A stretch of DNA of 17,932 bases from a virus, in the UHGV virus genome UHGV-1599718. One strand, 5' to 3'. How positions within the stretch are numbered: the first letter of the stretch is position 1; each line of letters opens with the position of its first letter. The notes under the pieces are model-generated. The model had not been told where the DNA came from, searched no databases, and saw nothing but the letters and a program-made list of their open reading frames with translations. Made by a program: the position numbers and the translations under genes. Positions 279 to 16,542 of this stretch are shown one piece after another.

Positions 279-644
279 TCACTTCAACTCCTCCCGACGA
301 CGTTCCTGAAGCTCTAGCATTGCGGCTCGGAAATCCTGCCACCATTCTTCATCGGCTACTGGGGTGTTCCGCTCCAGCACCTTGTCCGCATCGGCGATCA
401 GGTTTGCCAGACTCTTGTCTGAAATCTTCGTTACCGGAGTCGTTGGTTGCTCAACCTGCCCGATAGGTTTTATCGTGCTCAAAAGGAGGCGACGGCGGGA
501 AAGTGGTGCCCCACAACGACGGCCATCTTCCTTGCGATATGTTTCTTTCGGACCAACACACCAGGTTGTCGGCGTCTCGCGCAACTTCACTTTTTTCTCA
601 CCATCATTGGTAATGATTATTCCGGTATGTGTTTTGATGCTCAT
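279..644 (-). CDS. hypothetical phage protein (121 aa)
   Basis: ORF with ATG at 644..642 overlapping the TGA of the upstream gene (ATGA), so part of the same minus-strand operon. No family recognised. Confidence 0.5.
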   Translation of the reverse strand: MSIKTHTGIIITNDGEKKVKLRETPTTWCVGPKETYRKEDGRRCGAPLSRRRLLLSTIKPIGQVEQPTTPVTKISDKSLANLIADADKVLERNTPVADEEWWQDFRAAMLELQERRREELK

Positions 645-922
645 GCCACAGCCCCTCTCAACGGCTTAACTTTGGCTAATAAGGTGTTAAACAACATGGA
701 GTTAGGATTCATGCCAAATGGCAATTCCGGTTTAGCGGAGTAGTACAGGCAACCATTTATTTTCCTGGTTGTTATCTGTCCTTCGGCAACCATGCTTCTC
801 AGTCTGCAACGCATAGAGTTCTGCGACACACCAATGTGCTCCGCGATTACGTCCACTTTTGAACATGGGTGATCGGTCAGGAAATTAATCACATCTTGGG
901 GGTTAATAATTTTGCGTTTCAT
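641..922 (-). CDS. putative winged-helix DNA-binding protein (93 aa)
   Basis: Second in-frame ATG at 922..920 has an AAGGA about 10 nt upstream; the first ATG at 943 lies inside an AT-rich repeat with no RBS. HTH-like segment VDVIAEHIGVSQNSMRCRLRSMVAEGQI. Confidence 0.45.
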   Translation of the reverse strand: MKRKIINPQDVINFLTDHPCSKVDVIAEHIGVSQNSMRCRLRSMVAEGQITTRKINGCLYYSAKPELPFGMNPNSMLFNTLLAKVKPLRGAVA

Positions 923-942
923 TGTCGAGGCATCCTTATACA

Positions 943-968
943 TTTATATAAATATATAATTCTATATA
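943..968. promoter_or_regulatory. AT-rich operator/promoter-like repeat (TATATAA / TCTATA family), copy a
   Basis: tttatataaatatataattctatata lies directly upstream of the 641..922 gene; same motif family as copies at 2152, 5908, 5982, 6688 and 11052. Confidence 0.35.
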
Positions 969-999: not shown

Positions 1000-2067
1000 T
1001 CAGGCTTTCAATAGCGATTCTTTTAGATATCGGGCATCAGCCAGGGCGTTTGGAGTAATCTTGCGAACCCATGCATTACGGGTTGGACTCCACTTAAAGG
1101 CGCGTGATTTAAGCAGCGAACGAATGTTTGCCTCTGGTTTGCCAGGGAAATAAAACAGGATGCGGTTATCCTCTGGATCTATCTCCATAGAAAAGCCGTC
1201 GTATTCTTCGCGCTGTGCTCCTGTTACAGACTTGACCGATTCAAGCTCCTTAATACGGCTCTGTAGTCGTTTGATTTCGGCGTTATTGTTGCTCAGTGCG
1301 TATGAAGGGAATCCGATGCGCCCACAGAAATCTCCGGCCAGTAACTCTTTGGCTTCGCTTTCTGTAAACCTGAGATCGATTAATGCAGAAAGCTGCTGTA
1401 ATTGGTCTTTTTTGTATTTGCGAATGGCCTTATTTGCGGCCTTCATTTTGACGTGTGACTTCATGCAGCCTTGCAGCTTACGAAGCAACTTAAATAGCGC
1501 ATCAGGATCATCAGACGAAATTCCATTACGACCAACACCTGCGGCTTTGCTCTCGTAGTGTGATGCTTTACTTTCGCATTCAACAAACGCTTTTCTGAAT
1601 AACGCATCAGCTTTAGACAAACGGCGGCGATGGCCTTTCGCGCTATAATGGTCAACTAAAATCGGCTGGCCTAACGGGATCACATCCAACAGGTCATGCG
1701 CTCGCTTATGCGCTACCGCACCTTCTTTTCTGGCTTTTTCTGCACGAGCAATATATCGGGCAAGACGCGCGTTCTGGCGTTCCTGATAGGTGTTTACGTA
1801 ATCATCTCCGCGCTGCTGCTGTTCAAGCCATGCTTTGCGCAGATCTTCTGTTACGTCCACCAGCTCCGCAGGGATACAACCAGTTTGGGCTTCATAAGAG
1901 TAACCATCCTCATAGATACGCCCATCGTCTTCAACAAAGAAAAAGGTTTCGTGCTCATCGCTTTTGACCATACGACCATTAACATGGCGTAATAGGTAGC
2001 CAGTATCAGTGCTTAACAGGCTGTTAGGGTTGTTGATCCAGTCAGAAATAATTACTTGTTTATTCAT
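1000..2067 (-). CDS. hypothetical protein (355 aa), unknown function
   Basis: Long uninterrupted ORF starting ATG at 2067..2065; preceded by the conserved 89-bp leader. No family confidently recognised (DUF3560-like is a weak recollection only). Confidence 0.75.
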   Translation of the reverse strand: MNKQVIISDWINNPNSLLSTDTGYLLRHVNGRMVKSDEHETFFFVEDDGRIYEDGYSYEAQTGCIPAELVDVTEDLRKAWLEQQQRGDDYVNTYQERQNARLARYIARAEKARKEGAVAHKRAHDLLDVIPLGQPILVDHYSAKGHRRRLSKADALFRKAFVECESKASHYESKAAGVGRNGISSDDPDALFKLLRKLQGCMKSHVKMKAANKAIRKYKKDQLQQLSALIDLRFTESEAKELLAGDFCGRIGFPSYALSNNNAEIKRLQSRIKELESVKSVTGAQREEYDGFSMEIDPEDNRILFYFPGKPEANIRSLLKSRAFKWSPTRNAWVRKITPNALADARYLKESLLKA

Positions 2068-2073
2068 CAGATT

Positions 2074-2162
2074 TCTCCGGTTTAACCAGGGCGGGTATCG
2101 CTCGGTTTCGGTTATAACCTTAGGAAATTTTTTCCCACCTGTAAAGCACTTTTTATATAAAT
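2074..2162 (-). promoter_or_regulatory. conserved 89-bp promoter/5-prime leader element, copy A
   Basis: 89 bp differing at 2 positions from 10975..11063, in both cases immediately upstream of a minus-strand start codon; contains the palindrome GGTTATAACC. Confidence 0.55.
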
Positions 2163-2188
2163 CTATAATTATATATTTATAGATTTTC
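2152..2188. promoter_or_regulatory. AT-rich operator-like repeat, copy b (10-bp inverted repeat AAATCTATAA / TTATAGATTT)
   Basis: ttttatataaatctataattatatatttatagatttt; inverted halves aaatctataa and ttatagattt separated by 7 bp. Confidence 0.4.
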
Positions 2189-3584: not shown

Positions 3585-4096
3585 TGATGGCCCCCGTCAT
3601 TTCTAGTGCTTTTCACCGTGCGGCTTCTTAAAAACCTGCCATCACGAACAACAGACACTTCTCGTTTACCCAACCTCATTTCACGGCGGTAACATTCAGA
3701 AAATGCCTCGTCCGGCATCATATAAATGCGACGCTTCGCCTCCGTATCCAGAAGGGAACGGCTTGGGGTTACATATAAGAACGACTCATCAATAGGGACA
3801 AAACCACGAGCAAGAATTGCTGGCAGAATGCCAGGAAGAACGCAGAAAACAGCTCCACGATGCAGCAACATCTGGTACTCCATGACCTCCGTTATCCCCG
3901 TGACGACTGTTACGGTGTCACGTCTGTTACGGCTGGCAACCAGTCGCTGCACACGTCCAATTTTCTGATCTACAGATAGATGTTTGCTATCGTTATCAAT
4001 ATGATCGATAACAAATCCTTTAATCGTTTGATCAAGGTAGTGCACCACCTGCGATTGAATCTGGTGATTATCACCAAAGAAGGCCAGAATCATCAT
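3581..4096 (-). CDS. hypothetical phage protein (171 aa)
   Basis: ORF with ATG at 4096 overlapping the stop of the Cro-like gene; no family recognised. Confidence 0.55.
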   Translation of the reverse strand: MMILAFFGDNHQIQSQVVHYLDQTIKGFVIDHIDNDSKHLSVDQKIGRVQRLVASRNRRDTVTVVTGITEVMEYQMLLHRGAVFCVLPGILPAILARGFVPIDESFLYVTPSRSLLDTEAKRRIYMMPDEAFSECYRREMRLGKREVSVVRDGRFLRSRTVKSTRNDGGHQ

Positions 4097-4606: not shown

Positions 4607-4642
4607 ACCACGATATGTGGTATTAAAACCACATATCGTGAG
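4607..4642. promoter_or_regulatory. tandem operators O1 (ACCACGATATGTGGT, 4607-4621) and O2 (ACCACATATCGTGAG, 4628-4642)
   Basis: Two 15-bp ACCAC-N5-GTGGT dyads with centres 21 bp apart, between divergent CI-like and Cro-like genes. On the minus strand they fall in the spacer and -10 region of a TTGAAA-N17-TTTAAT promoter candidate. Confidence 0.6.
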
Positions 4643-4709: not shown

Positions 4710-4724
4710 ACCACTAAATGTGGT
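4710..4724. promoter_or_regulatory. operator O3 (ACCACTAAATGTGGT) upstream of the CI-like gene
   Basis: Same dyad architecture, 38 bp upstream of the start at 4762; adjacent TATAAA at 4729-4735. Confidence 0.55.
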
Positions 4725-4761: not shown

Positions 4762-5418
4762 ATGAAAAGCAACGACGAGAACATCAAGAAAGAAATAGGT
4801 CTGCGCATTCAGACTCTACGGAAACAATCCGGCATGACTGCCGGAGATCTCCAGCAAGTCACTGGAATAGGCTTAAGCACCTTGCAGAACTATGAGGCCG
4901 GATTAAGACAACCATCTATACCTGCCATCAAGAAAATCGCGCACGCCCTGAAAGCATCAGCGCCTTATATCGCGTGCTTAACAGATAACCCGTTCCCACC
5001 CCAGAATACTAACGCTCCTGTTATTCCTGGGCTTGTAGCTATAAAAAATGACATAGCATCGCACGCCGGAGAAAAACCAGTGCTGGCGATAGAACAGGAG
5101 ATTCTACGAAGCAAGAACATCAACCCATCGTCTCTGTCAGTTCTCCAGAGCAACGATGAGTTAATGTCACCAACAATATCCCCTGGCTCCCAAGTCCTGA
5201 TTAATACAGACGATACAGAGATTCATGAGGGGATCTATGCCCTTGAAGACAGAAATGGCCTGGTTGTTTTGAGGCACTGTAGAGTCATACCGGGTGACAA
5301 TGCTGTTATGCTGTCAACCGAAAGGGATGCTGAAATGAACACTAAGCATCTGAATAACGAGGAATTTAAGCGTTATAAAGTTCTTGGCCGCGTAGTTAGT
5401 GTTGTCAACTGGTTATGA
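4762..5418 (+). CDS. CI-like prophage repressor (HTH_XRE N-terminal domain plus S24 LexA-like peptidase C-terminal domain, 218 aa)
   Basis: HTH segment IGLRIQTLRKQSGMTAGDLQQVTGIGLSTLQNYEAG. C-terminal region ELMSPTISPGSQVLINTDD ... GDNAVMLS ... KVLGRVVSV matches the Ser/Lys autopeptidase layout of LexA/CI proteins. Confidence 0.8.
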   Translation: MKSNDENIKKEIGLRIQTLRKQSGMTAGDLQQVTGIGLSTLQNYEAGLRQPSIPAIKKIAHALKASAPYIACLTDNPFPPQNTNAPVIPGLVAIKNDIASHAGEKPVLAIEQEILRSKNINPSSLSVLQSNDELMSPTISPGSQVLINTDDTEIHEGIYALEDRNGLVVLRHCRVIPGDNAVMLSTERDAEMNTKHLNNEEFKRYKVLGRVVSVVNWL

Positions 5419-5460: not shown

Positions 5461-5475
5461 ACCACATTTTGTGGT
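5461..5475. promoter_or_regulatory. operator O4 (ACCACATTTTGTGGT) upstream of the 5511 gene
   Basis: Same dyad, immediately followed by TTGACA (5477-5482) and TATAAA (5494-5499), 36 bp before the ATG at 5511. Confidence 0.5.
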
Positions 5476-5510: not shown

Positions 5511-5885
5511 ATGGAATTACATACAGCCAATAAAAACGAAACTCTGATCACTGCTGGAATCGAAATCCAAGCGTTGAACATAGCGATTGAGTGTATGTTA
5601 TGCCAACTCATTGATAATGAGAAAGATATCGACTGGATAGAATCTATCCTTCATCTGGCATCAGAACAAAAAGTCTGCCTCAAAACGGCCTTACAATACG
5701 ATGTGCCAGCGGTATCGAAGCTGTGCCAGTCATTGATGGCATATAACAGGGCTATTATTTCTGTATGCCTCATGATTCTCGATGAAAACACCCCTCTTAG
5801 CGACCGCTCAGAAGCTGCTCTAACCCTCTCACGTAAACAGCGACAGCTAGCAAATCAACTGATATCAACGATAGCTGACCTCTGA
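5511..5885 (+). CDS. hypothetical protein (124 aa), unknown function
   Basis: ORF with AGAGG RBS; operator O4 upstream and a terminator hairpin downstream. Confidence 0.6.
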   Translation: MELHTANKNETLITAGIEIQALNIAIECMLCQLIDNEKDIDWIESILHLASEQKVCLKTALQYDVPAVSKLCQSLMAYNRAIISVCLMILDENTPLSDRSEAALTLSRKQRQLANQLISTIADL

Positions 5886-5890
5886 CTGCA

Positions 5891-5908
5891 AGCGGGCTAA
5901 CGCCCGCT
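5891..5908 (+). terminator. stem-loop, candidate terminator after the 5511 gene
   Basis: agcgggc-taac-gcccgct directly after the stop at 5885, followed by an AT-rich run (ttatatgattat). Confidence 0.5.
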
Positions 5909-6013
5909 TATATGATTATAGATTTATATAATTATATAAAACGCTTTTCATCCGCCAAAAAGTTGGTTATGCTTATCTCATTCTATAAATATAGATTTAT
6001 AGAATTATATAAT
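5908..6013. promoter_or_regulatory. two AT-rich repeat clusters (copies c at 5908-5939 and d at 5982-6013) upstream of the ParA gene; candidate operator or centromere-like site
   Basis: ttatatgattatagatttatataattatataa and tctataaatatagatttatagaattatataat; TCTATA-AA-TATAGA is a perfect palindrome. Confidence 0.4.
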
Positions 6014-6035
6014 CAAACACATGGAGTCTCGACAA

Positions 6036-6689
6036 ATGACTATATCTGTAGGTATTTTCAACGGAAAAGGCGGCGTAACCAAATCAACCATTGCTCGTGC
6101 TTTAGCAGTTGCTTATGCAAAGGCTGGCTGGAATGTATGCCTGATCGATATGGATGTGCTTAACGGAACGGTAACGCGTTGGGTACAACGCAGAATGGCC
6201 AACAATATCGAACCTGCAATCGCGGCGCAGCCGTGCGGCACGCCATCACAAGTCCAGAAAATCATCGAATCAGAAGTATACGACCTGGTTATCGTTGATG
6301 GCGGTGCCTACGCATCTGAATCAGTACCGAAGCTATCTGAATTTCTGGATATGGTTATTTTGCCAACCAGATTCTCTACCGATGACCTGGAAACCACCGT
6401 TAACACTGCTCACGGTATCGTTAAAAAGGGTGTACCAATCAAGAAAATTTGCATGGTGTTTTCCGGCGCGGCTGAAAACGAAGCTGACTATATTGAAGCC
6501 CAAGAGTACCTGGCTAATACGCCATACTTTGTTGTTGATAAGTACATTCCCCACAAGCCAGCTCTGAGCAAAGCTCAGGATAAGGGCTTAAGCCTCATTG
6601 AGTGCTCATACGTTGCGCCACGCAAAAAGGCAGACGACGTTATTCAGGGGATTATCAACCAGCTTGAGGCTCTGACTACTGCCGCGTAA
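6036..6689 (+). CDS. parA: ParA/ParF-type partition ATPase (deviant Walker A)
   Basis: GKGGVTKST deviant Walker A at the N-terminus and DLVIVDGG Walker B-like motif. ATG 6036 has GGAG 9 nt upstream; the track start at 6021 lacks an RBS. Confidence 0.85.
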   Translation: MTISVGIFNGKGGVTKSTIARALAVAYAKAGWNVCLIDMDVLNGTVTRWVQRRMANNIEPAIAAQPCGTPSQVQKIIESEVYDLVIVDGGAYASESVPKLSEFLDMVILPTRFSTDDLETTVNTAHGIVKKGVPIKKICMVFSGAAENEADYIEAQEYLANTPYFVVDKYIPHKPALSKAQDKGLSLIECSYVAPRKKADDVIQGIINQLEALTTAA

Positions 6690-6720
6690 TATATAATTAT
6701 AGTTTTATAGATTTATATAA
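6688..6720. promoter_or_regulatory. AT-rich repeat copy e between the ParA gene and its partner
   Basis: aatatataattatagttttatagatttatataa starting at the ParA stop codon. Confidence 0.4.
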
Positions 6721-7193: not shown

Positions 7194-7209
7194 ATTCAAC
7201 CATAAAAAA

Positions 7210-7225
7210 GGCCCCCGAAGGGGCC
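7210..7225. terminator. bidirectional intrinsic terminator
   Basis: ggcccc-cgaa-ggggcc flanked by an A-run on the left; on the minus strand the stem is followed by ttttttatgg. Confidence 0.5.
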
Positions 7226-7231
7226 TAATCG

Positions 7232-7354
7232 CTACTTGCTGCTAATGTTTATCGTCACATTCAGAGCGTTATCAGTAATCTTCCAACCCTCCCCATGTGG
7301 CGTAAACAAAGCTCCAGTAACAACGATAAAAATACACATACAGTATTTTTTCAT
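7232..7354 (-). CDS. possible small hydrophobic peptide (40 aa); speculative
   Basis: Internal ATG of ORF 7232..7414 gives MKKYCMCIFIVVTGALFTPHGEGWKITDNALNVTINISSK; ends at the minus-strand face of the 7210-7225 terminator. Weak RBS. Confidence 0.2.
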   Translation of the reverse strand: MKKYCMCIFIVVTGALFTPHGEGWKITDNALNVTINISSK

Positions 7355-7752
7355 TGTATGGCCCTTACAGGCCGTTTCACGGCATCCCCACCGACGAAAA
7401 CAACGCGAGAGCAAGCACGGCTGCTTGTGCTTGCATGTACGGCAACGGAGAATCCTCCCCTAAAGTCGGTGCCCGGGTGCGAATCGGCGGGAAGGTCCAC
7501 AGGTATTTTACGATTATTTTAAGATTAGTAATAGGAAAGAAATTAAACGAAAAAACTCGTTTATTTTCACAAAATCAGTAACCTACCCACAATCTGTGAG
7601 TTTGCAGGCACAACAAGAACCACAATTTTTTGAAGCATAATAGTGGACTATTATTACCTTTTGGGTAAAATTAACTTGCTGCTTGTGCTTGCGTGGTTGT
7701 TTATACAACAACGTAATGCTGAAAGGACCGCGAATCCGATCAGCACGAAAGA

Positions 7753-7779: not shown

Positions 7780-7925
7780 TTTCTGCCTACCAATAAACCC
7801 ACGCTATGTGGTTGTCTCTGTTAAAATCCCGCCGTATTGACATGAATGCGCCATTGGTGGACACTTTCCGAGCCGTAGCAAAATCTACGGTCGGGATTGG
7901 AACCCCGATAATCATCATGGCGCAT

Positions 7926-7946
7926 ACCGCGTTAGCGGTTTTTTTA
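7926..7946 (+). terminator. intrinsic terminator candidate in a non-coding region
   Basis: accgc-gtta-gcggt followed by TTTTTTT. Confidence 0.5.
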
Positions 7947-8110
7947 TGCGTAAAGCACTGCTACACCCAAATTATGGTGGGGCGTGCGGGGGAGTCGTAA
8001 GACTCGCCGGATTCCATGGTGACCGGTAGTTCCAACCCTGTACGTCTCACCACCCAATGATTGGAACCAGACGGTGGTGAGTATCCTTAACCTTTAAGGG
8101 AACTATCACC

Positions 8111-8302
8111 ATGACAAACTTACCCCATGACTATTACGTCAACCTCGTAAAGATCCTTCTCAAGAAAGCCTCATACGCCGATAAATTACGCTTGGCTGAA
8201 ATCATCGAGCGCGAAGCTATGCGCATCGCCAGCAACGATAACGCTGTTTCTGACGCAAAAATCTCCCTCGTAACCAAAGTAGTTATGGGAGGTGCAAAAT
8301 GA
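8111..8302 (+). CDS. small hypothetical phage protein (63 aa)
   Basis: ORF whose TGA overlaps the ATG of the downstream Rha-like gene (ATGA); weak RBS. Confidence 0.45.
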   Translation: MTNLPHDYYVNLVKILLKKASYADKLRLAEIIEREAMRIASNDNAVSDAKISLVTKVVMGGAK

Positions 8303-9441
8303 AAACGCTTCCGACCGTTAACACCCTACAGCCTATCCTGCATAACCAGATCCCCGTTATCACTAGTGAACTTCTGGCGCAGTTATACGGAACAAAAATC
8401 AAAAACATTTCTGATAACTTTCTGAACAACTCGACGCGATTCGTAGCCGGAAAGCATTACTTTAAAATTGAAAAAAACGAATTACGCGAGTTCAAGAACA
8501 GACCCGAAACAATCGGGTTAGTTGGTAAAAATGCCCGCTCCCTAATTCTCTGGACCGAACGCGGGGCTGCACGTCACGCTAAAATGCTCGAAACCGATCA
8601 GGCGTGGGATGTATTCGAACGGCTGGAAGACTGCTATTTCAACCAGAACGCGCAAACGGCCGCGACCGTAACCGTCTCGCCAAACAATGCTCGTGAGGTT
8701 GTCGATACGCTCAACGCCAAACCGATGTTTTACATTAAGGTGTGCAATAACGAGCCACTCACAACCTCAGCCGATGTTGCCCAGGCATTCAGCACCACAA
8801 ACAATTCCATCGTTATGGCCATCGATGCGTTACGCATTCCTCGCACAGCTGCGGCACGTCATTTCTTTAAAGAGCAACGACCGCTGGAAGGAAGCGACCG
8901 CGAAATAACAATCTATCGCATGACAAAAGATGGATTTACCTTGCTCATGGAAAGTATCGACGGTCCAGGCGTGAAAGATATCAAGCTGGCCTACATTGAA
9001 GCCTTTAACGCTATCAGCAGCGTGTTAAAAACACAGTACGAGCGTGATCTGGCTAAACGACTGTACCAGGAAAAAACGATTATCCGCGCGGCAACAGAGC
9101 ATAATCGGCTATTAACGGAACCGAACTACAGGAAGGAACTAATCAAGGAGTTTGACAAGGCAACAGGGAAAACCAAAGCGGCGCTAAATCTGCCAGCAAT
9201 GACTCAGGAAAATGTGATATCAGCCTTACTTCTTGATCTGCTCAGAAACGCCAGAGCACTTATCAGCTTTGACGAAAACCTGAATCCTCAGCTCAAGCTA
9301 CTACCACCGACAGGCAAAGTAGTCGACCAGGCTGATCACAACAGCATACTCAGCGTTCTGGATGCAAACCTGCCAGCCAGGACACTACAGGATCTGATAA
9401 AAACATGTGCTGATAAGCTGGCACAGAAAAGCAGACCATAA
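8299..9441 (+). CDS. phage regulatory protein Rha family, antirepressor-like, with N-terminal ORF6N/KilA-N-like domain (380 aa)
   Basis: GGAGG RBS. N-terminal region (IPVITSELLAQLYGTKIKNISDNF ... SLILWTERGAARHAKM) resembles the ORF6N domain. Central region (PLTTSADVAQAFSTTNNSIVMAIDAL ... ITIYRMTKDGFTLLMESIDGPGVKDIKLAYIEAFNAI) resembles the Rha domain. Confidence 0.75.
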   Translation: MKTLPTVNTLQPILHNQIPVITSELLAQLYGTKIKNISDNFLNNSTRFVAGKHYFKIEKNELREFKNRPETIGLVGKNARSLILWTERGAARHAKMLETDQAWDVFERLEDCYFNQNAQTAATVTVSPNNAREVVDTLNAKPMFYIKVCNNEPLTTSADVAQAFSTTNNSIVMAIDALRIPRTAAARHFFKEQRPLEGSDREITIYRMTKDGFTLLMESIDGPGVKDIKLAYIEAFNAISSVLKTQYERDLAKRLYQEKTIIRAATEHNRLLTEPNYRKELIKEFDKATGKTKAALNLPAMTQENVISALLLDLLRNARALISFDENLNPQLKLLPPTGKVVDQADHNSILSVLDANLPARTLQDLIKTCADKLAQKSRP

Positions 9442-10586: not shown

Positions 10587-10967
10587 TTACTTAACGAGGA
10601 ATAAAAATGGTTTATTGTTCGGCGGTGTAATCGCGGCTGGCTCGCTTTTGCTCATGCGATCAGTGTACCAGGCCAGCTCCTTGTCAAAGTAAGCCTGATT
10701 AAAATAGGCAATGAATGTAGTTTCAAATCCATAACGGCCGCTAATACGCAGCATCTGATTGCCGTTCTCTGTTTCCAGATATACCTGGGCACGTTCCTGA
10801 TTCTCCTTCAGCCAGGTTAAAGCCTCATCGCATGAGGACACACGATACTCATCATCGTAGCAGTCATCGATGCGGCTTGAGGAAGAACGGCAAATCACGC
10901 CAACAGAACCAGCCAGGATAGTTTGAATTTTAAGGAAAGCGTTTTTGCGGATTTTAATCATGCTCAT
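10587..10967 (-). CDS. hypothetical protein (126 aa), unknown function
   Basis: ORF with ATG at 10967 immediately downstream of the second copy of the conserved leader. Confidence 0.65.
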   Translation of the reverse strand: MSMIKIRKNAFLKIQTILAGSVGVICRSSSSRIDDCYDDEYRVSSCDEALTWLKENQERAQVYLETENGNQMLRISGRYGFETTFIAYFNQAYFDKELAWYTDRMSKSEPAAITPPNNKPFLFLVK

Positions 10968-10974
10968 CGGGTTA

Positions 10975-11063
10975 TCTCCGGTTTAACCAGGGCGGGTATC
11001 GCTCGGTTTCGGGTATAACCTTAGGAAATTTCTTCCCACCTGTAAAGCACTTTTTATATAAAT
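10975..11063 (-). promoter_or_regulatory. conserved 89-bp promoter/5-prime leader element, copy B
   Basis: Differs from 2074..2162 at 2 positions, and the similarity continues about 13 bp into the adjacent AT-rich repeat; the flanking coding sequences are unrelated. Confidence 0.55.
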
Positions 11064-11086
11064 ATATAATTATATAATTCTATGAG
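11052..11086. promoter_or_regulatory. AT-rich operator-like repeat, copy f
   Basis: ttttatataaatatataattatataattctatgag. Confidence 0.4.
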
Positions 11087-11130: not shown

Positions 11131-11430
11131 TCAGATGTTAAACGCTATTCGTTTTCCTGTGGGAAGCTCAACATCCAGGCTTAATTTGCCTCCCATAGCT
11201 TCAACGTAACGCTTTAATGTCGCCAGCTTTAAATCATTTCCGCGCTGCTCCAGCTTTGTTACTGCTGGCTGGCTTATACCCATCGCCTCAGCAACCTGTT
11301 TTTGTGATAACTGGAGTTCTTCACGCATCATCTGCAAGCCGACCTCAAGAATCATCTCATCTGCCATTTCTTTAATTCGCGCCTGGCTTTCCGGTGAACG
11401 GCTGGCAATCGCCTCATCTAATGTTCTCAT
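11131..11430 (-). CDS. HTH (XRE-type) antitoxin, HigA-like addiction-module antidote protein (99 aa)
   Basis: HTH segment LQLSQKQVAEAMGISQPAVTKLEQRGNDLKLATLKRYVEAMGGKL; start overlaps the toxin stop (TAATG). Confidence 0.7.
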   Translation of the reverse strand: MRTLDEAIASRSPESQARIKEMADEMILEVGLQMMREELQLSQKQVAEAMGISQPAVTKLEQRGNDLKLATLKRYVEAMGGKLSLDVELPTGKRIAFNI

Positions 11431-12388: not shown

Positions 12389-14358
<1,970 letters not shown>

Positions 14359-15129: not shown

Positions 15130-15370
15130 TTAAATAAAGAAAGTCTTAATAAAAGAAAGTGATTTTGCATTTATTTGTTTAGTGCATCTATTATAAAAAA
15201 CCATTTGCATATATGTATCAAAACTGTGGATAACTTTATTAGCCGATGCCTGTAAAGGCGATATTTTCGCTGTGTTCAGGTTTAGAGAAAATTAATTTAG
15301 ATTGTTTTTTGAACAGGTATTTTATTGCGACGTAGATAATCCTCCGGTAAAACCGGATTCATCATTCAGG
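15130..15370. other. putative replication origin region of the IncFII-type replicon (AT-rich, DnaA box, short direct repeats)
   Basis: Lies immediately downstream of the RepA stop. TGTGGATAA (complement TTATCCACA, the DnaA box consensus) at 15225-15233; AAAGAAAGT at 15136-15144 and 15152-15160; ATTTGCAT repeated. Confidence 0.4.
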
Positions 15371-15374
15371 TGGG

Positions 15375-16223
15375 TTAATGTTGGAGTGATTTCCAGGTCT
15401 TTCTTAGCCTGTTATAACGCTGCTCAACGAGGGATCGTAAATATGCAAGGTCAGCACCAGGATACATGCCATCAGCAAATTCCTGACTAACCTCTCTGGT
15501 GATTTGATGACGAAGTTCGGCCTCTCCCTTTTCACGAACAAGACGCGCAGCTCTCTCCGCTGCTTTCTGTTTTGCCTTTATCTCTCTGGCCGTCTTCCTC
15601 TGACGCCATACATTCTCCATCTGCTCCTGAATAACAATACGCTTATAATCAGCCTCCGTTATCGCTTTTTTAAGCCGTTCGCTATTCTTCGCATTGAAGT
15701 AATTAAGTTTCTGGCTAACCGCACGTCTCCATGCTTGTTCAGTAATACCAACGGTTTCCAGCAGTTGATCACGAATCTCTATTTTCGCTGGCCAATACTG
15801 TTTATTCACCCGATCCCAGCGACGTTCATAATCAATAAAACCTAACGCTTTCAGTTGCGACAACGCCCTTGTACAGCGCGTTATAGACTTGTTCCCAGCT
15901 TCGGATACGGTAGACAGGCCGCAAAAATCAGCCAACGCCTCAGCACTGGCCAGAACCCGCTTAGAAATGATGTTTACATGGTGCAAAATCGCAGCAATCA
16001 CAGCATTAATCGCCCGACGACGATGCTCGTTTATCCGGCGTTTCCGCTCTGACGGTTGATTAACGTAGAACGCAACCTCACACGTAAGATCACGACCATT
16101 AATGCGCTGTAAAGCATCAGATAATACCAGCGGCAGCTTGTGCGTATGGTGCTTTGGAGGCTGGAACTCCGGCGACAAATTACAAACGTAAGCTGAACGT
16201 AGAGACGGCATTGGTCTATCCAT
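15375..16223 (-). CDS. repA: IncFII-type plasmid replication initiator RepA (RepFIIA family, about 283 aa)
   Basis: Segment RRRAINAVIAAIL ... ADFCGLSTVSEAGNKSITRCTRALSQLKALGFIDYERRWD aligns by eye with R100/R1 RepA1 (RRRAIDALLQGL ... AIECGLATESAAGKLSITRATRALTFLSELGLITYQTEYD). Start placed at MDRPMPSL (16223); an in-frame upstream ATG at 16361 would add 46 aa and may instead be a leader ORF. Confidence 0.8.
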   Translation of the reverse strand: MDRPMPSLRSAYVCNLSPEFQPPKHHTHKLPLVLSDALQRINGRDLTCEVAFYVNQPSERKRRINEHRRRAINAVIAAILHHVNIISKRVLASAEALADFCGLSTVSEAGNKSITRCTRALSQLKALGFIDYERRWDRVNKQYWPAKIEIRDQLLETVGITEQAWRRAVSQKLNYFNAKNSERLKKAITEADYKRIVIQEQMENVWRQRKTAREIKAKQKAAERAARLVREKGEAELRHQITREVSQEFADGMYPGADLAYLRSLVEQRYNRLRKTWKSLQH

Positions 16224-16267
16224 ATGTTCGCTCTTGCGTCCACGGAAAACCAACGTATAATGGGAGT

Positions 16268-16353
16268 TGTCGAGGCGCCCATGGATTGTTGTTGGTTTTT
16301 GTTTCTTTCCGTGGATGTCGCAAGAAGCCCGCAGATTTATCTGCGGGCTTTTT
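16268..16353 (+). ncRNA. candidate CopA-like antisense RNA of the repA leader
   Basis: Plus-strand TTGCGT (16234-16239), 16 bp spacer, TATAAT (16256-16261), then about 85 nt ending in the hairpin agcccgcag-atttat-ctgcgggct plus TTTT (16326-16353). Antisense to the region upstream of the repA start. Confidence 0.45.
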
Positions 16354-16397
16354 GTTTCCATATCTGGTCACTTTTCAACCAGACACCCACAATCATA

Positions 16398-16412
16398 ACC
16401 ACGTTACGTGGT
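16398..16412. promoter_or_regulatory. operator O5 (ACCACGTTACGTGGT) in the repA promoter region
   Basis: Same ACCAC-N5-GTGGT dyad as O1-O4, about 175 bp upstream of the repA start, adjacent to a TATGAT -10 candidate on the minus strand. Confidence 0.5.
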
Positions 16413-16542
16413 TTTAAGAGAACTCTACCACAACACTTTCGGTCATGCACGAAGTCTCTCACTGATCGAACGATAATCCACCAGTAAAAGGATCTAAATT
16501 GGATCTCGTTTTGCGAGCATCATACTACTGGCCTAACTCCAG

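Follow-up and report, generated by a model that had tools for sequence, protein, structure and literature searches.

Four-unit 8-bp repeat arrays as the probable type Ib centromere and shared operator of an Escherichia coli phage-plasmid

The window analyzed here, the whole stretch of 17,932 nucleotides from UHGV virus genome UHGV-1599718, is the early and plasmid-maintenance region (17.9 kb) of a ~48-kb circular E. coli phage-plasmid with a myovirus-type structural module. Its partition (par) locus contains parA and the gene of a small partner protein of 82 aa, and AT-rich repeats are found around these genes and at further intergenic sites. A preliminary description of the sequence had noticed such repeats at six intergenic sites and read them as a candidate dispersed operator or centromere family of the ribbon-helix-helix (RHH) protein beside ParA, in the manner of Omega of pSM19035. 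The genes, arrays, and predicted promoters concerned are listed below in window coordinates.

The par locus and its repeat arrays

641..922, minus strand: gene of a 93-aa MarR/FaeA-like winged-helix protein
936-967, minus strand: array A, units ATATAGAA TTATATAT TTATATAA ATGTATAA
1000..2067, minus strand: DUF3560 gene, product with a primase-like C-terminus
2068..2152, minus strand: promoter-leader module behind array B, predicted -35 TTTACA (2145-2140), predicted -10 TAAGGT (2122-2117)
2153-2184, minus strand: array B, units ATCTATAA ATATATAA TTATAGAT TTATATAA
5908-5939, plus strand: array C, the distal par array, units TTATATGA TTATAGAT TTATATAA TTATATAA
5945..5973, plus strand: predicted parA promoter, read from the sequence, -35 TTTTCA (5945-5950), 17-nt spacer, -10 TATGCT (5968-5973)
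5981-6012, plus strand: array D, the proximal par array, units TTCTATAA ATATAGAT TTATAGAA TTATATAA, with a degenerate fifth unit TTATCTCA in front (5973-5980)
6036..6689, plus strand: parA, 217 aa
6689-6720, plus strand: array E, units ATATATAA TTATAGTT TTATAGAT TTATATAA
6733..6981, plus strand: gene of the 82-aa protein
10587..10967, minus strand: gene of a 126-aa protein, function not assigned
10968..11053, minus strand: second promoter-leader copy (95% identity), predicted -35 at 11046-11041, predicted -10 at 11023-11018
11054-11085, minus strand: array F, units TCATAGAA TTATATAA TTATATAT TTATATAA
11131..11783: HigBA-like toxin-antitoxin pair, with the HigA-like antitoxin at 11131..11430

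Position-weight and degenerate-pattern scans found exactly six arrays in the window, each of 32 bp and made of four in-phase 8-bp units with the consensus TTATAKAW. All of them were at or adjoining the sites noticed before, and they were more regular (4 x 8 bp) than first described. The assignment to genes was likewise confirmed: two clusters precede parA, one lies between it and the 82-aa gene, and 641..922, 1000..2067, and 10587..10967 have one upstream each. The unit TTATATAA is a palindrome, and TTATAGAT and TTATAGAA together with their complements account for the TATAGA/TCTATA words of the repeats.

The 12-mer TATAGATTTATA, with up to two mismatches, matched 27 times in the window compared with 1.44 expected, and a three-unit pattern matched 26 times compared with 0.01 expected. 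Runs of at least three in-phase units formed six blocks, while there were 0 in 100 dinucleotide-preserving shuffles. A scan for AT-rich blocks with no more than two G/C per 24 nt, a criterion unbiased as to the unit, recovered the same six blocks of the window and no others. In the complete relative CP099184.1 (L003), 13 AT-rich blocks were found, of which eight were arrays and five lacked the unit, so the arrays are not merely generic AT-rich DNA. Motif statistics had been set as one test of the repeat family, and both the shuffles and the unit-free blocks of L003 distinguished the repeats from generic AT-rich sequence. The whole element carries eight arrays, two of which fall outside the window, and none lies in structural genes.

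Array C starts right behind the hairpin that ends the 5511..5885 gene and stops 5 nt short of the predicted parA -35; transcription of parA would start near 5980. Arrays C and D flank the predicted promoter, and this layout recurs in 10 relatives with clearer promoters at the parA position (for example, TTGCCT-17-TACTCT/TATGCT and TTGCAC-N17-TATACT). Array D stops 23 nt before the ATG of parA, ahead of a GGAG...CTCGACAAATG translation start region. Array E opens within the parA stop codon and closes at the GAGGGG ribosome-binding site of the 82-aa gene, filling the whole spacer. The two genes are probably co-transcribed.

ParA is a small Walker-type partition ATPase without an N-terminal DNA-binding domain (type Ib). 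It matched CbiA, ParA, MipZ, and AAA_31 in Pfam and the PHROG of ParA-like partition proteins, and its counterparts in relatives are annotated as ParA. In PDB it matched ParF (4dzz) and ParA (5u1g) with E ~3e-4. It is a divergent member of the group, since the NCBIfam model ParA_partition scored it at 78.6 bits against a cut-off of 180 bits. A contig scan with ParA gave nothing useful.

The AlphaFold2 (AF2) model of the 82-aa protein showed residues 1-39 as unstructured, a strand-like segment at 40-46 (QMAFNVD), and helices at 47-59 and 62-79. The disordered tail is basic and the strand is hydrophobic-alternating; a disordered tail followed by strand-helix-helix is also the layout of ParG and Omega (PMC5016525). 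Within the tail, the motif [KR]-x2-3-[KL]-G-x-P-P is conserved among family members.

The 82-aa protein alone had no match in Pfam, NCBIfam, or PDB, fold searches with its monomer model were empty, and a word-index protein search returned only close relatives with at least 78% identity. In PHROGs only an unnamed family matched it, and none of the libraries searched has a family name for it. A PDB search with the profile of close homologues gave chance matches only, and RHH proteins surfaced only once partners from other par cassettes had been added to the profile. The widened profile matched the RHH protein SvtR (2KEL, E 2.8e-5) and ParG (1P94, E 0.39) in register over the strand-helix-helix part. 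With hhalign, the narrow family aligned to SvtR in the same register (E 5.5e-4, probability 30%), and one family member matched Pfam 56B_RHH (E 1.1e-4). No Omega chain was found in the PDB searches with the 82-aa protein or the family profiles at E up to 10. These results support an RHH-like character of the protein at the profile level, and Q40, A42, and N44 are predicted to be its contact residues in a two-stranded beta-ribbon.

Partner proteins, repeat units, and promoter modules in relatives

Arrays flank homologous parA/partner cassettes in 12 other replicons, including phage-plasmids and plasmids. The positions are kept, with two clusters around the parA promoter and usually another beside the partner gene. 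The period is mostly 8 bp, often with four units; a distant IncI-gamma/S. fonticola type has 12-bp units and a longer partner. The partners were aligned on the conserved strand-[D/G/P]-[P/A]-E junction, and the triad of predicted outward-facing beta-strand residues is given below with the unit of each replicon.

E. coli phage-plasmid (window): triad Q-A-N, unit TTATAKAW
Salmonella phage-plasmid: triad Q-S-N, unit TTATAKAW
E. coli 24-kb conjugative plasmid: triad Q-N-Y, unit of TTATATWW type
Contigs L030/31/33/34/35: triad Q-L-R, unit KATATAWW
Serratia phage-plasmid: triad P-N-N, unit AWWTAWWT (CTTTAAAT-type)
L032: triad L-N-N, unit AATCTTTA
P. aeruginosa phage-plasmid: triad D-N-K, unit TTCGCTWW
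Erwinia: triad D-N-K, unit AGCGAA (= TTCGCT)
P. amygdali: triad D-G-K, unit WTTAGCT
Nostoc: triad N-N-K, unit ACGAAA
L036: triad L-N-R, unit CTATAAAG
Paracoccus: unit TTTCATG, 8-bp spacing

Like triads were accompanied by a like unit core in unrelated hosts, as in Pseudomonas and Erwinia (TTCGCT) and in Serratia and L032 (CTTTAAAT-type), and differing triads pair with differing units. This comparison is the strongest evidence pointing to the 82-aa protein as the binder.

Array counts were non-random in each complete element tested (0 to 0.2 expected), and arrays outside the par locus were present in all complete relatives examined. The Salmonella phage-plasmid has seven blocks at orthologous places, the Serratia one has five to six, and contigs L030/33/35 have three to six per 20 kb. 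Eight blocks were found in the P. aeruginosa phage-plasmid at a looser two-unit threshold (0.21 expected by chance), where the blocks of two to three units away from par are weaker evidence than four-unit arrays.

Between the E. coli element and Salmonella pAR-0407-1 (L019), ParA is 96% and the partner 90% identical, while the neighbors are at 45-68% except for the HigA-like antitoxin (89%), and the unit is unchanged. The higher conservation of ParA and its partner suggests either the strong constraint of a multi-site regulon or a recent exchange of the par cassette. With the 24-kb conjugative plasmid (NZ_CP101228.1, L013), the phage-plasmid has in common only ParA, the partner, the HigBA pair, and a weak RepA match. 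Two four-unit arrays of this plasmid, at 3866-3897 and 5639-5670, exactly fill stop-to-ribosome-binding-site spacers of its type IV secretion system (T4SS) operon, one between virB9 and virB10 and the other behind a virB6-like gene, and the partition protein may also act inside the conjugation operon there.

Away from par, array B heads a promoter-leader module of the 1000..2067 gene, and array F, which follows the terminator behind the HigBA-like pair, heads the module of the 10587..10967 gene. In the module of array B, the 17-nt spacer contains the palindrome GGAAA-AAA-TTTCC and a ~45-nt leader ends in GGAG before the ATG. Array, promoter, and leader form a ~120-bp cassette with three copies per genome (2068-2184, 10968-11085, and L003 37603-37720), which precede unrelated genes (DUF3560/primase-like, 126-aa, and 89-aa). 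The ~85-nt segment behind the array is ~95% identical in the three copies, and the homology begins exactly at the array. The promoters of these copies are predicted from the sequence, and the predicted transcription starts behind arrays B and F fall near 2110 and 11011 (minus strand). The leader RNA had no significant structure (z -0.72), and a riboswitch-like reading of it was therefore dropped.

Dispersed arrays precede a homologous module in E. coli, Serratia, L030/33/35, and L032. Across these lineages the module has a -35 of CTTGCA, CTTGTC, or CTTTACA, a 17-nt spacer with a palindrome, a -10 of TATTCT, TATAAT, TACTAT, or TAAGGT, and a leader ending in GGAGATAA before the ATG. The -35 and -10 hexamers are better in Serratia and other phage-plasmids than in E. 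coli. In all four lineages the array before the module is the local par-type repeat, and it ends 5-9 nt before the -35. These results support the view that the promoter module was inherited while the array was matched to the resident partition protein. Local arrays before an inherited module would be hard to explain unless the partition protein, or something strictly linked to par, reads the arrays. A search with the 85-nt leader for phage-plasmids with a different par system returned only the same 62 records; more distant relatives supplied such cases, with the module kept and the array type different.

The spacer palindrome lies between the predicted -35 and -10, at 2123-2139 and 11024-11040 (minus strand). 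Its sequence is GGAAA-AAA-TTTCC in E. coli and TAGGAC-N5-GTCCTA in the relatives L006, L030, L033, L035, and L032. It may be a second operator for some dimeric regulator, which would give the module promoters two inputs.

Another module consists of an array, a gap of 8-23 nt, and the translation start sequence CTCGACAA(A)TG, and precedes parA (site D) and the 641..922 gene (site A). Array A lies 13 nt before the ATG of the latter, directly behind the hairpin that follows the DUF3560 gene. The sequence CTCGACAA(A)TG is common to parA and other array-preceded genes in several lineages (920-935, 6020-6038, L006 ~27707-27730, and L030 ~6590-6613). The arrangement suggests that the array with its translation start region is a second duplicated module.

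One of the two arrays outside the window (L003 36467-36498) is placed directly after the last open reading frame (ORF) of the lysis cassette, 138 nt upstream of a tRNA-Met gene (anticodon CAT, L003 36637-36712), and no convincing promoter was seen between this array and the tRNA gene. The other lies upstream of the 89-aa gene. Cargo genes had been proposed as targets in the preliminary description; the array-preceded genes are instead backbone genes, encoding the primase-like DUF3560 protein and small proteins.

Comparison with known systems and alternative readings

The locus has the characteristics of a type Ib system, namely a small ParA of the kind described, a downstream small protein with a tail and an RHH-like part, and repeats around the predicted par promoter. 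The ParF/ParG system of TP228 (parH/OF) is similar in that a small ParA-type ATPase comes before a small protein that combines a flexible N-terminal tail with a C-terminal RHH domain. Its sites also occur every 8 bp in direct and inverted orientation, and two clusters lie upstream of the operon (PMC3130281). ParG binds 4-bp boxes with 4-bp AT spacers, one dimer per box, at a distal centromere and a proximal operator (PMC3130281). The structures of ParF and ParG were among the few PDB matches, but the sequence relation is very distant (ParF E 3e-4, ParG E 0.39). Moreover, the unit is TTATAKAW here and ACTC plus spacer in TP228, the arrays have four units here compared with 12 and 8 there, and in the phage-plasmid one more array separates parA from the partner gene. 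The phage-plasmid genome has five further arrays at other places, and the literature consulted showed no such dispersal for TP228. With a different box and marginal homology, the locus falls outside the ParG/parH family.

The Delta/Omega system of pSM19035 also has an RHH centromere-binding protein with arrays at several promoters, one of them before the RHH gene itself. The Omega parS sites overlap the three promoters PcopS, Pdelta, and Pomega (PMC5016525), so that a single protein couples partition with copy control and maintenance. Each repeat is bound by one dimer regardless of its orientation, and ParA is fully activated only by four or more contiguous repeats (PMC9499535), a minimum that matches the four-unit arrays of the phage-plasmid. 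Arrays at several separate promoters, as in the Omega regulon, were found here too (eight per genome, three of them at the repeated module), which supports the partition protein as a candidate shared transcriptional input at the module promoters. On the other hand, Omega comes from a Gram-positive theta plasmid and uses 7-bp WATCACW heptads in arrays of 7-10, whereas this phage-plasmid has 8-bp TTATAKAW units, and Omega sequence similarity was undetectable in any search. Judged by heptads and homology, the 82-aa protein is not a member of the Omega family; by analogy, it is a protein that would work like Omega from outside that family.

ParB of plasmid pB171 is an RHH protein that binds short repeats, and we know of no dispersed sites elsewhere on that plasmid. 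The par2 system of pB171 (ParA, ParB, parC1/parC2) is likewise type Ib and from E. coli, and its par genes are bracketed by two site clusters, parC1 upstream and parC2 downstream (PMC4270457); in the phage-plasmid, the second cluster separates parA from the partner gene instead of following the operon. N15, a linear prophage, is a phage-plasmid whose SopAB system has partition-protein sites scattered over the genome, IR1-4 (PMC7205306). It differs in being type Ia, as SopB is a large helix-turn-helix (HTH) ParB that binds single 16-bp palindromes and spreads, without short tandem repeat arrays and without an RHH protein.

We consider it likely that the arrays are the cognate sites of the 82-aa RHH protein, a type Ib centromere-binding protein of the ParG/Omega kind. 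A type Ib centromere and global operator is the most likely reading because the units co-vary with the predicted contact residues and the arrays at the module switch to the local repeat. Together with the RHH-like profile, these two observations lend support to the dispersed, Omega-like family that was proposed at the outset.

In such a system, one dimer would bind each 8-bp unit through its two-stranded beta-ribbon, and four adjacent dimers would cover each 32-bp array cooperatively. Arrays C (~-41 to -72), D (~+1 to +33), and E would build the partition complex, from which the basic N-terminal tail ([KR]..KG.PP) would stimulate the ParA ATPase, and they would also autoregulate the parA promoter between C and D. 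The five further arrays of the genome (three in the window) would serve as shared operator sites. B, F, and the third copy outside the window would act from 5-9 nt upstream of the module -35, with dispersed arrays at ~-41 to -72 of the module promoters, and site A from right before the ribosome-binding site. The concentration of the partition protein would then govern, together with partition, how strongly the DUF3560 gene and several small genes are expressed. The dispersed sites could repress, as with Omega, activate, block read-through, or only add centromere capacity.

Several points weigh against this interpretation. Binding and function are both deduced from the sequence, and the register of the beta-strand, and hence the contact triad, is taken by analogy with Arc and ParG. 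In a sigma-70 consensus scan, no promoter in gene orientation fell at or inside any of the arrays. The predicted promoters are weak (8/12 consensus positions), below the threshold of that scan, and they are proposed from comparison with relatives. Arrays A and E leave no space for a downstream promoter, so their role is ambiguous among an internal promoter, a roadblock, and a centromere only. In addition, the HigA-like HTH antitoxin is shared by the E. coli phage-plasmid and the 24-kb plasmid (49% identity) and is a partial confounder for that pair.

The alternative that survives best, though we judge it improbable, accepts the par arrays as centromere and operator of the RHH protein and takes the dispersed copies as extra centromere sites or leftovers of cassette duplication, without a role in transcription. 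It is in keeping with the stop-to-ribosome-binding-site spacers that are filled by arrays A and E and by the two T4SS arrays, with the joint movement of array, promoter, and leader as one ~120-bp cassette in three copies, and with N15, where four separate centromere sites (IR1-4) are known (PMC7205306). However, the array in the four lineages stays 5-9 nt upstream of the module -35 and is swapped for the local repeat and not lost. A fixed place and replacement rather than loss are what would be expected of an operator or activator site, and in pSM19035 the same sites do both jobs (PMC5016525).

Still less probable is a binder other than the partition protein, such as the 93-aa MarR/FaeA-like protein, the HigA-like protein, the CI-like repressor, or another protein encoded by the element. 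The 93-aa protein had been named earlier as a possible binder, and an array before the gene of this winged-helix-type protein would suit autoregulation. It is nevertheless a poor candidate, as neither it nor the 126-aa and 124-aa proteins had a detectable homologue in the Serratia phage-plasmid, the 24-kb plasmid, or the Pseudomonas element, all of which carry arrays. The HigA-like protein accompanies similar units in the E. coli element and the 24-kb plasmid, but HigBA is absent from Serratia, and none is annotated beside the array-flanked cassettes of Erwinia, P. amygdali, Paracoccus, and Nostoc. A separate probable operator family, ACCAC-N5-GTGGT, accounts for the CI-like repressor. Furthermore, tandem 8-bp units in direct and inverted orientation suit RHH dimers and not HTH dimers on palindromes, and ParA and its partner were the only proteins present at every array-bearing locus examined.

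It is very unlikely that the arrays are generic AT-rich promoter, UP-element, or H-NS/IHF/Fis sites, alike through composition and promoter duplication and without a dedicated binder: they are ~90% A+T, are rich in TATAAT-like hexamers, occupy the place upstream of promoters at which UP elements act, and in several cases start directly after terminator hairpins or stop codons, but their strict 8-bp phasing and four-unit length never arose in shuffles, and the other AT-rich blocks of the same genome lack the unit. The equivalent arrays are not AT-only in Pseudomonas (TTCGCTAA), Erwinia, Nostoc (ACGAAA), and L036 (CTATAAAG), while period and position are kept; and E. coli, Serratia, and Salmonella have near-identical RNA polymerase and nucleoid proteins, yet the units differ and track the par cassette. 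Promoter consensus and composition alone do not explain the motif. RepA iterons or a DNA-unwinding element were rejected in view of the dispersal of the arrays and of the separate repeats that flank repA, and an AU-rich translational enhancer upstream of the ribosome-binding site was rejected because the Pseudomonas, Erwinia, and Nostoc equivalents are not AU-rich.

A type Ib RHH centromere-binding protein that doubles as a multi-promoter regulator, as favored here for the 82-aa protein, is of a kind already known. Here it would occur in an uncharacterized and fairly widespread family of phage-plasmids and plasmids, and the more unusual aspect would be that repeat specificity has switched repeatedly across the whole regulon, each time together with the protein. 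If the reading is true, one 82-aa protein controls inheritance and a set of replication and accessory promoters, and removing or titrating it could cure or de-repress the element. The relatives are a natural series with the same module and architecture and at least nine different 8-bp units matched to beta-strand residues, which could be used to study DNA reading by RHH proteins, the in-step change of the operators of a regulon, and the avoidance of incompatibility among related phage-plasmids.

A broader proposal is tentative, and we regard it as possible but doubtful. The RHH partition protein would be a master regulator of this phage-plasmid group, tying segregation to the primase-like gene, the tRNA region, and the genes that lead up to the late region, and its level would report the plasmid state to the phage programme. 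Protein and array specificity would have been swapped repeatedly and in concert at all six to eight sites per lineage, creating combined incompatibility and regulatory-immunity groups and a readable RHH code from triad to 8-bp unit.

The host element and other features of the window

The par region is 98-99% identical to that of ~60 Escherichia plasmids, among them one of 48,488 bp in E. coli ATCC 25922, and to that of three Yersinia phages (vB_YpM_39/41/44). The phage-plasmid was present in 71 of 5,426 complete E. coli genomes, including that of reference strain ATCC 25922, and nearly always as a plasmid. Salmonella, Klebsiella, and Escherichia albertii carry the element too, and in Yersinia it takes the form of infectious phages; a literature search on the Yersinia phage names had no result. 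The following further genes of the window are referred to here.

4762..5418: gene of the CI-like HTH/S24 repressor
8299..9441: ORF6N/Rha antirepressor-like gene
15375..16361: RepA gene

The palindrome ACCAC-N5-GTGGT has five sites in the window compared with 0.3 expected (4607-4621, 4710-4724, 5461-5475, 7798-7812, and 16398-16412). Two of them lie where the CI-like repressor gene and the early operon diverge, a third follows the repressor gene, a fourth precedes the isrK/C4 RNA region, and the last precedes repA by 37 nt. These sites are probably operators of the CI-like repressor, which would tie lysogeny control to replication.

Rfam matches above the gathering score were ryfA (7204-7500, minus strand, 142 bits), isrK (7872-7945, plus strand, 70 bits), and C4 antisense RNA (7970-8057, plus strand, 84 bits). 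This stretch lies just upstream of the ORF6N/Rha antirepressor-like gene, and the region looks like an antisense-RNA immunity module of the P1/P7 immI type.

The stretch 12389-14358 contains two overlapping ORFs (390 and 266 aa) with a G+C content of 0.53-0.56, compared with ~0.45 around it, and is missing from most relatives. The ORF sizes fit an istA/istB insertion of the IS21 family, and IS21 is annotated in the matched region of one related record.

Direct repeats of GATAATCCnCCnGTAAAA are found on both sides of repA (15335-15352 and 16472-16489), with a weaker copy at 7448-7465. These repeats differ from the TTATAKAW arrays and may serve RepA as iterons or operators.

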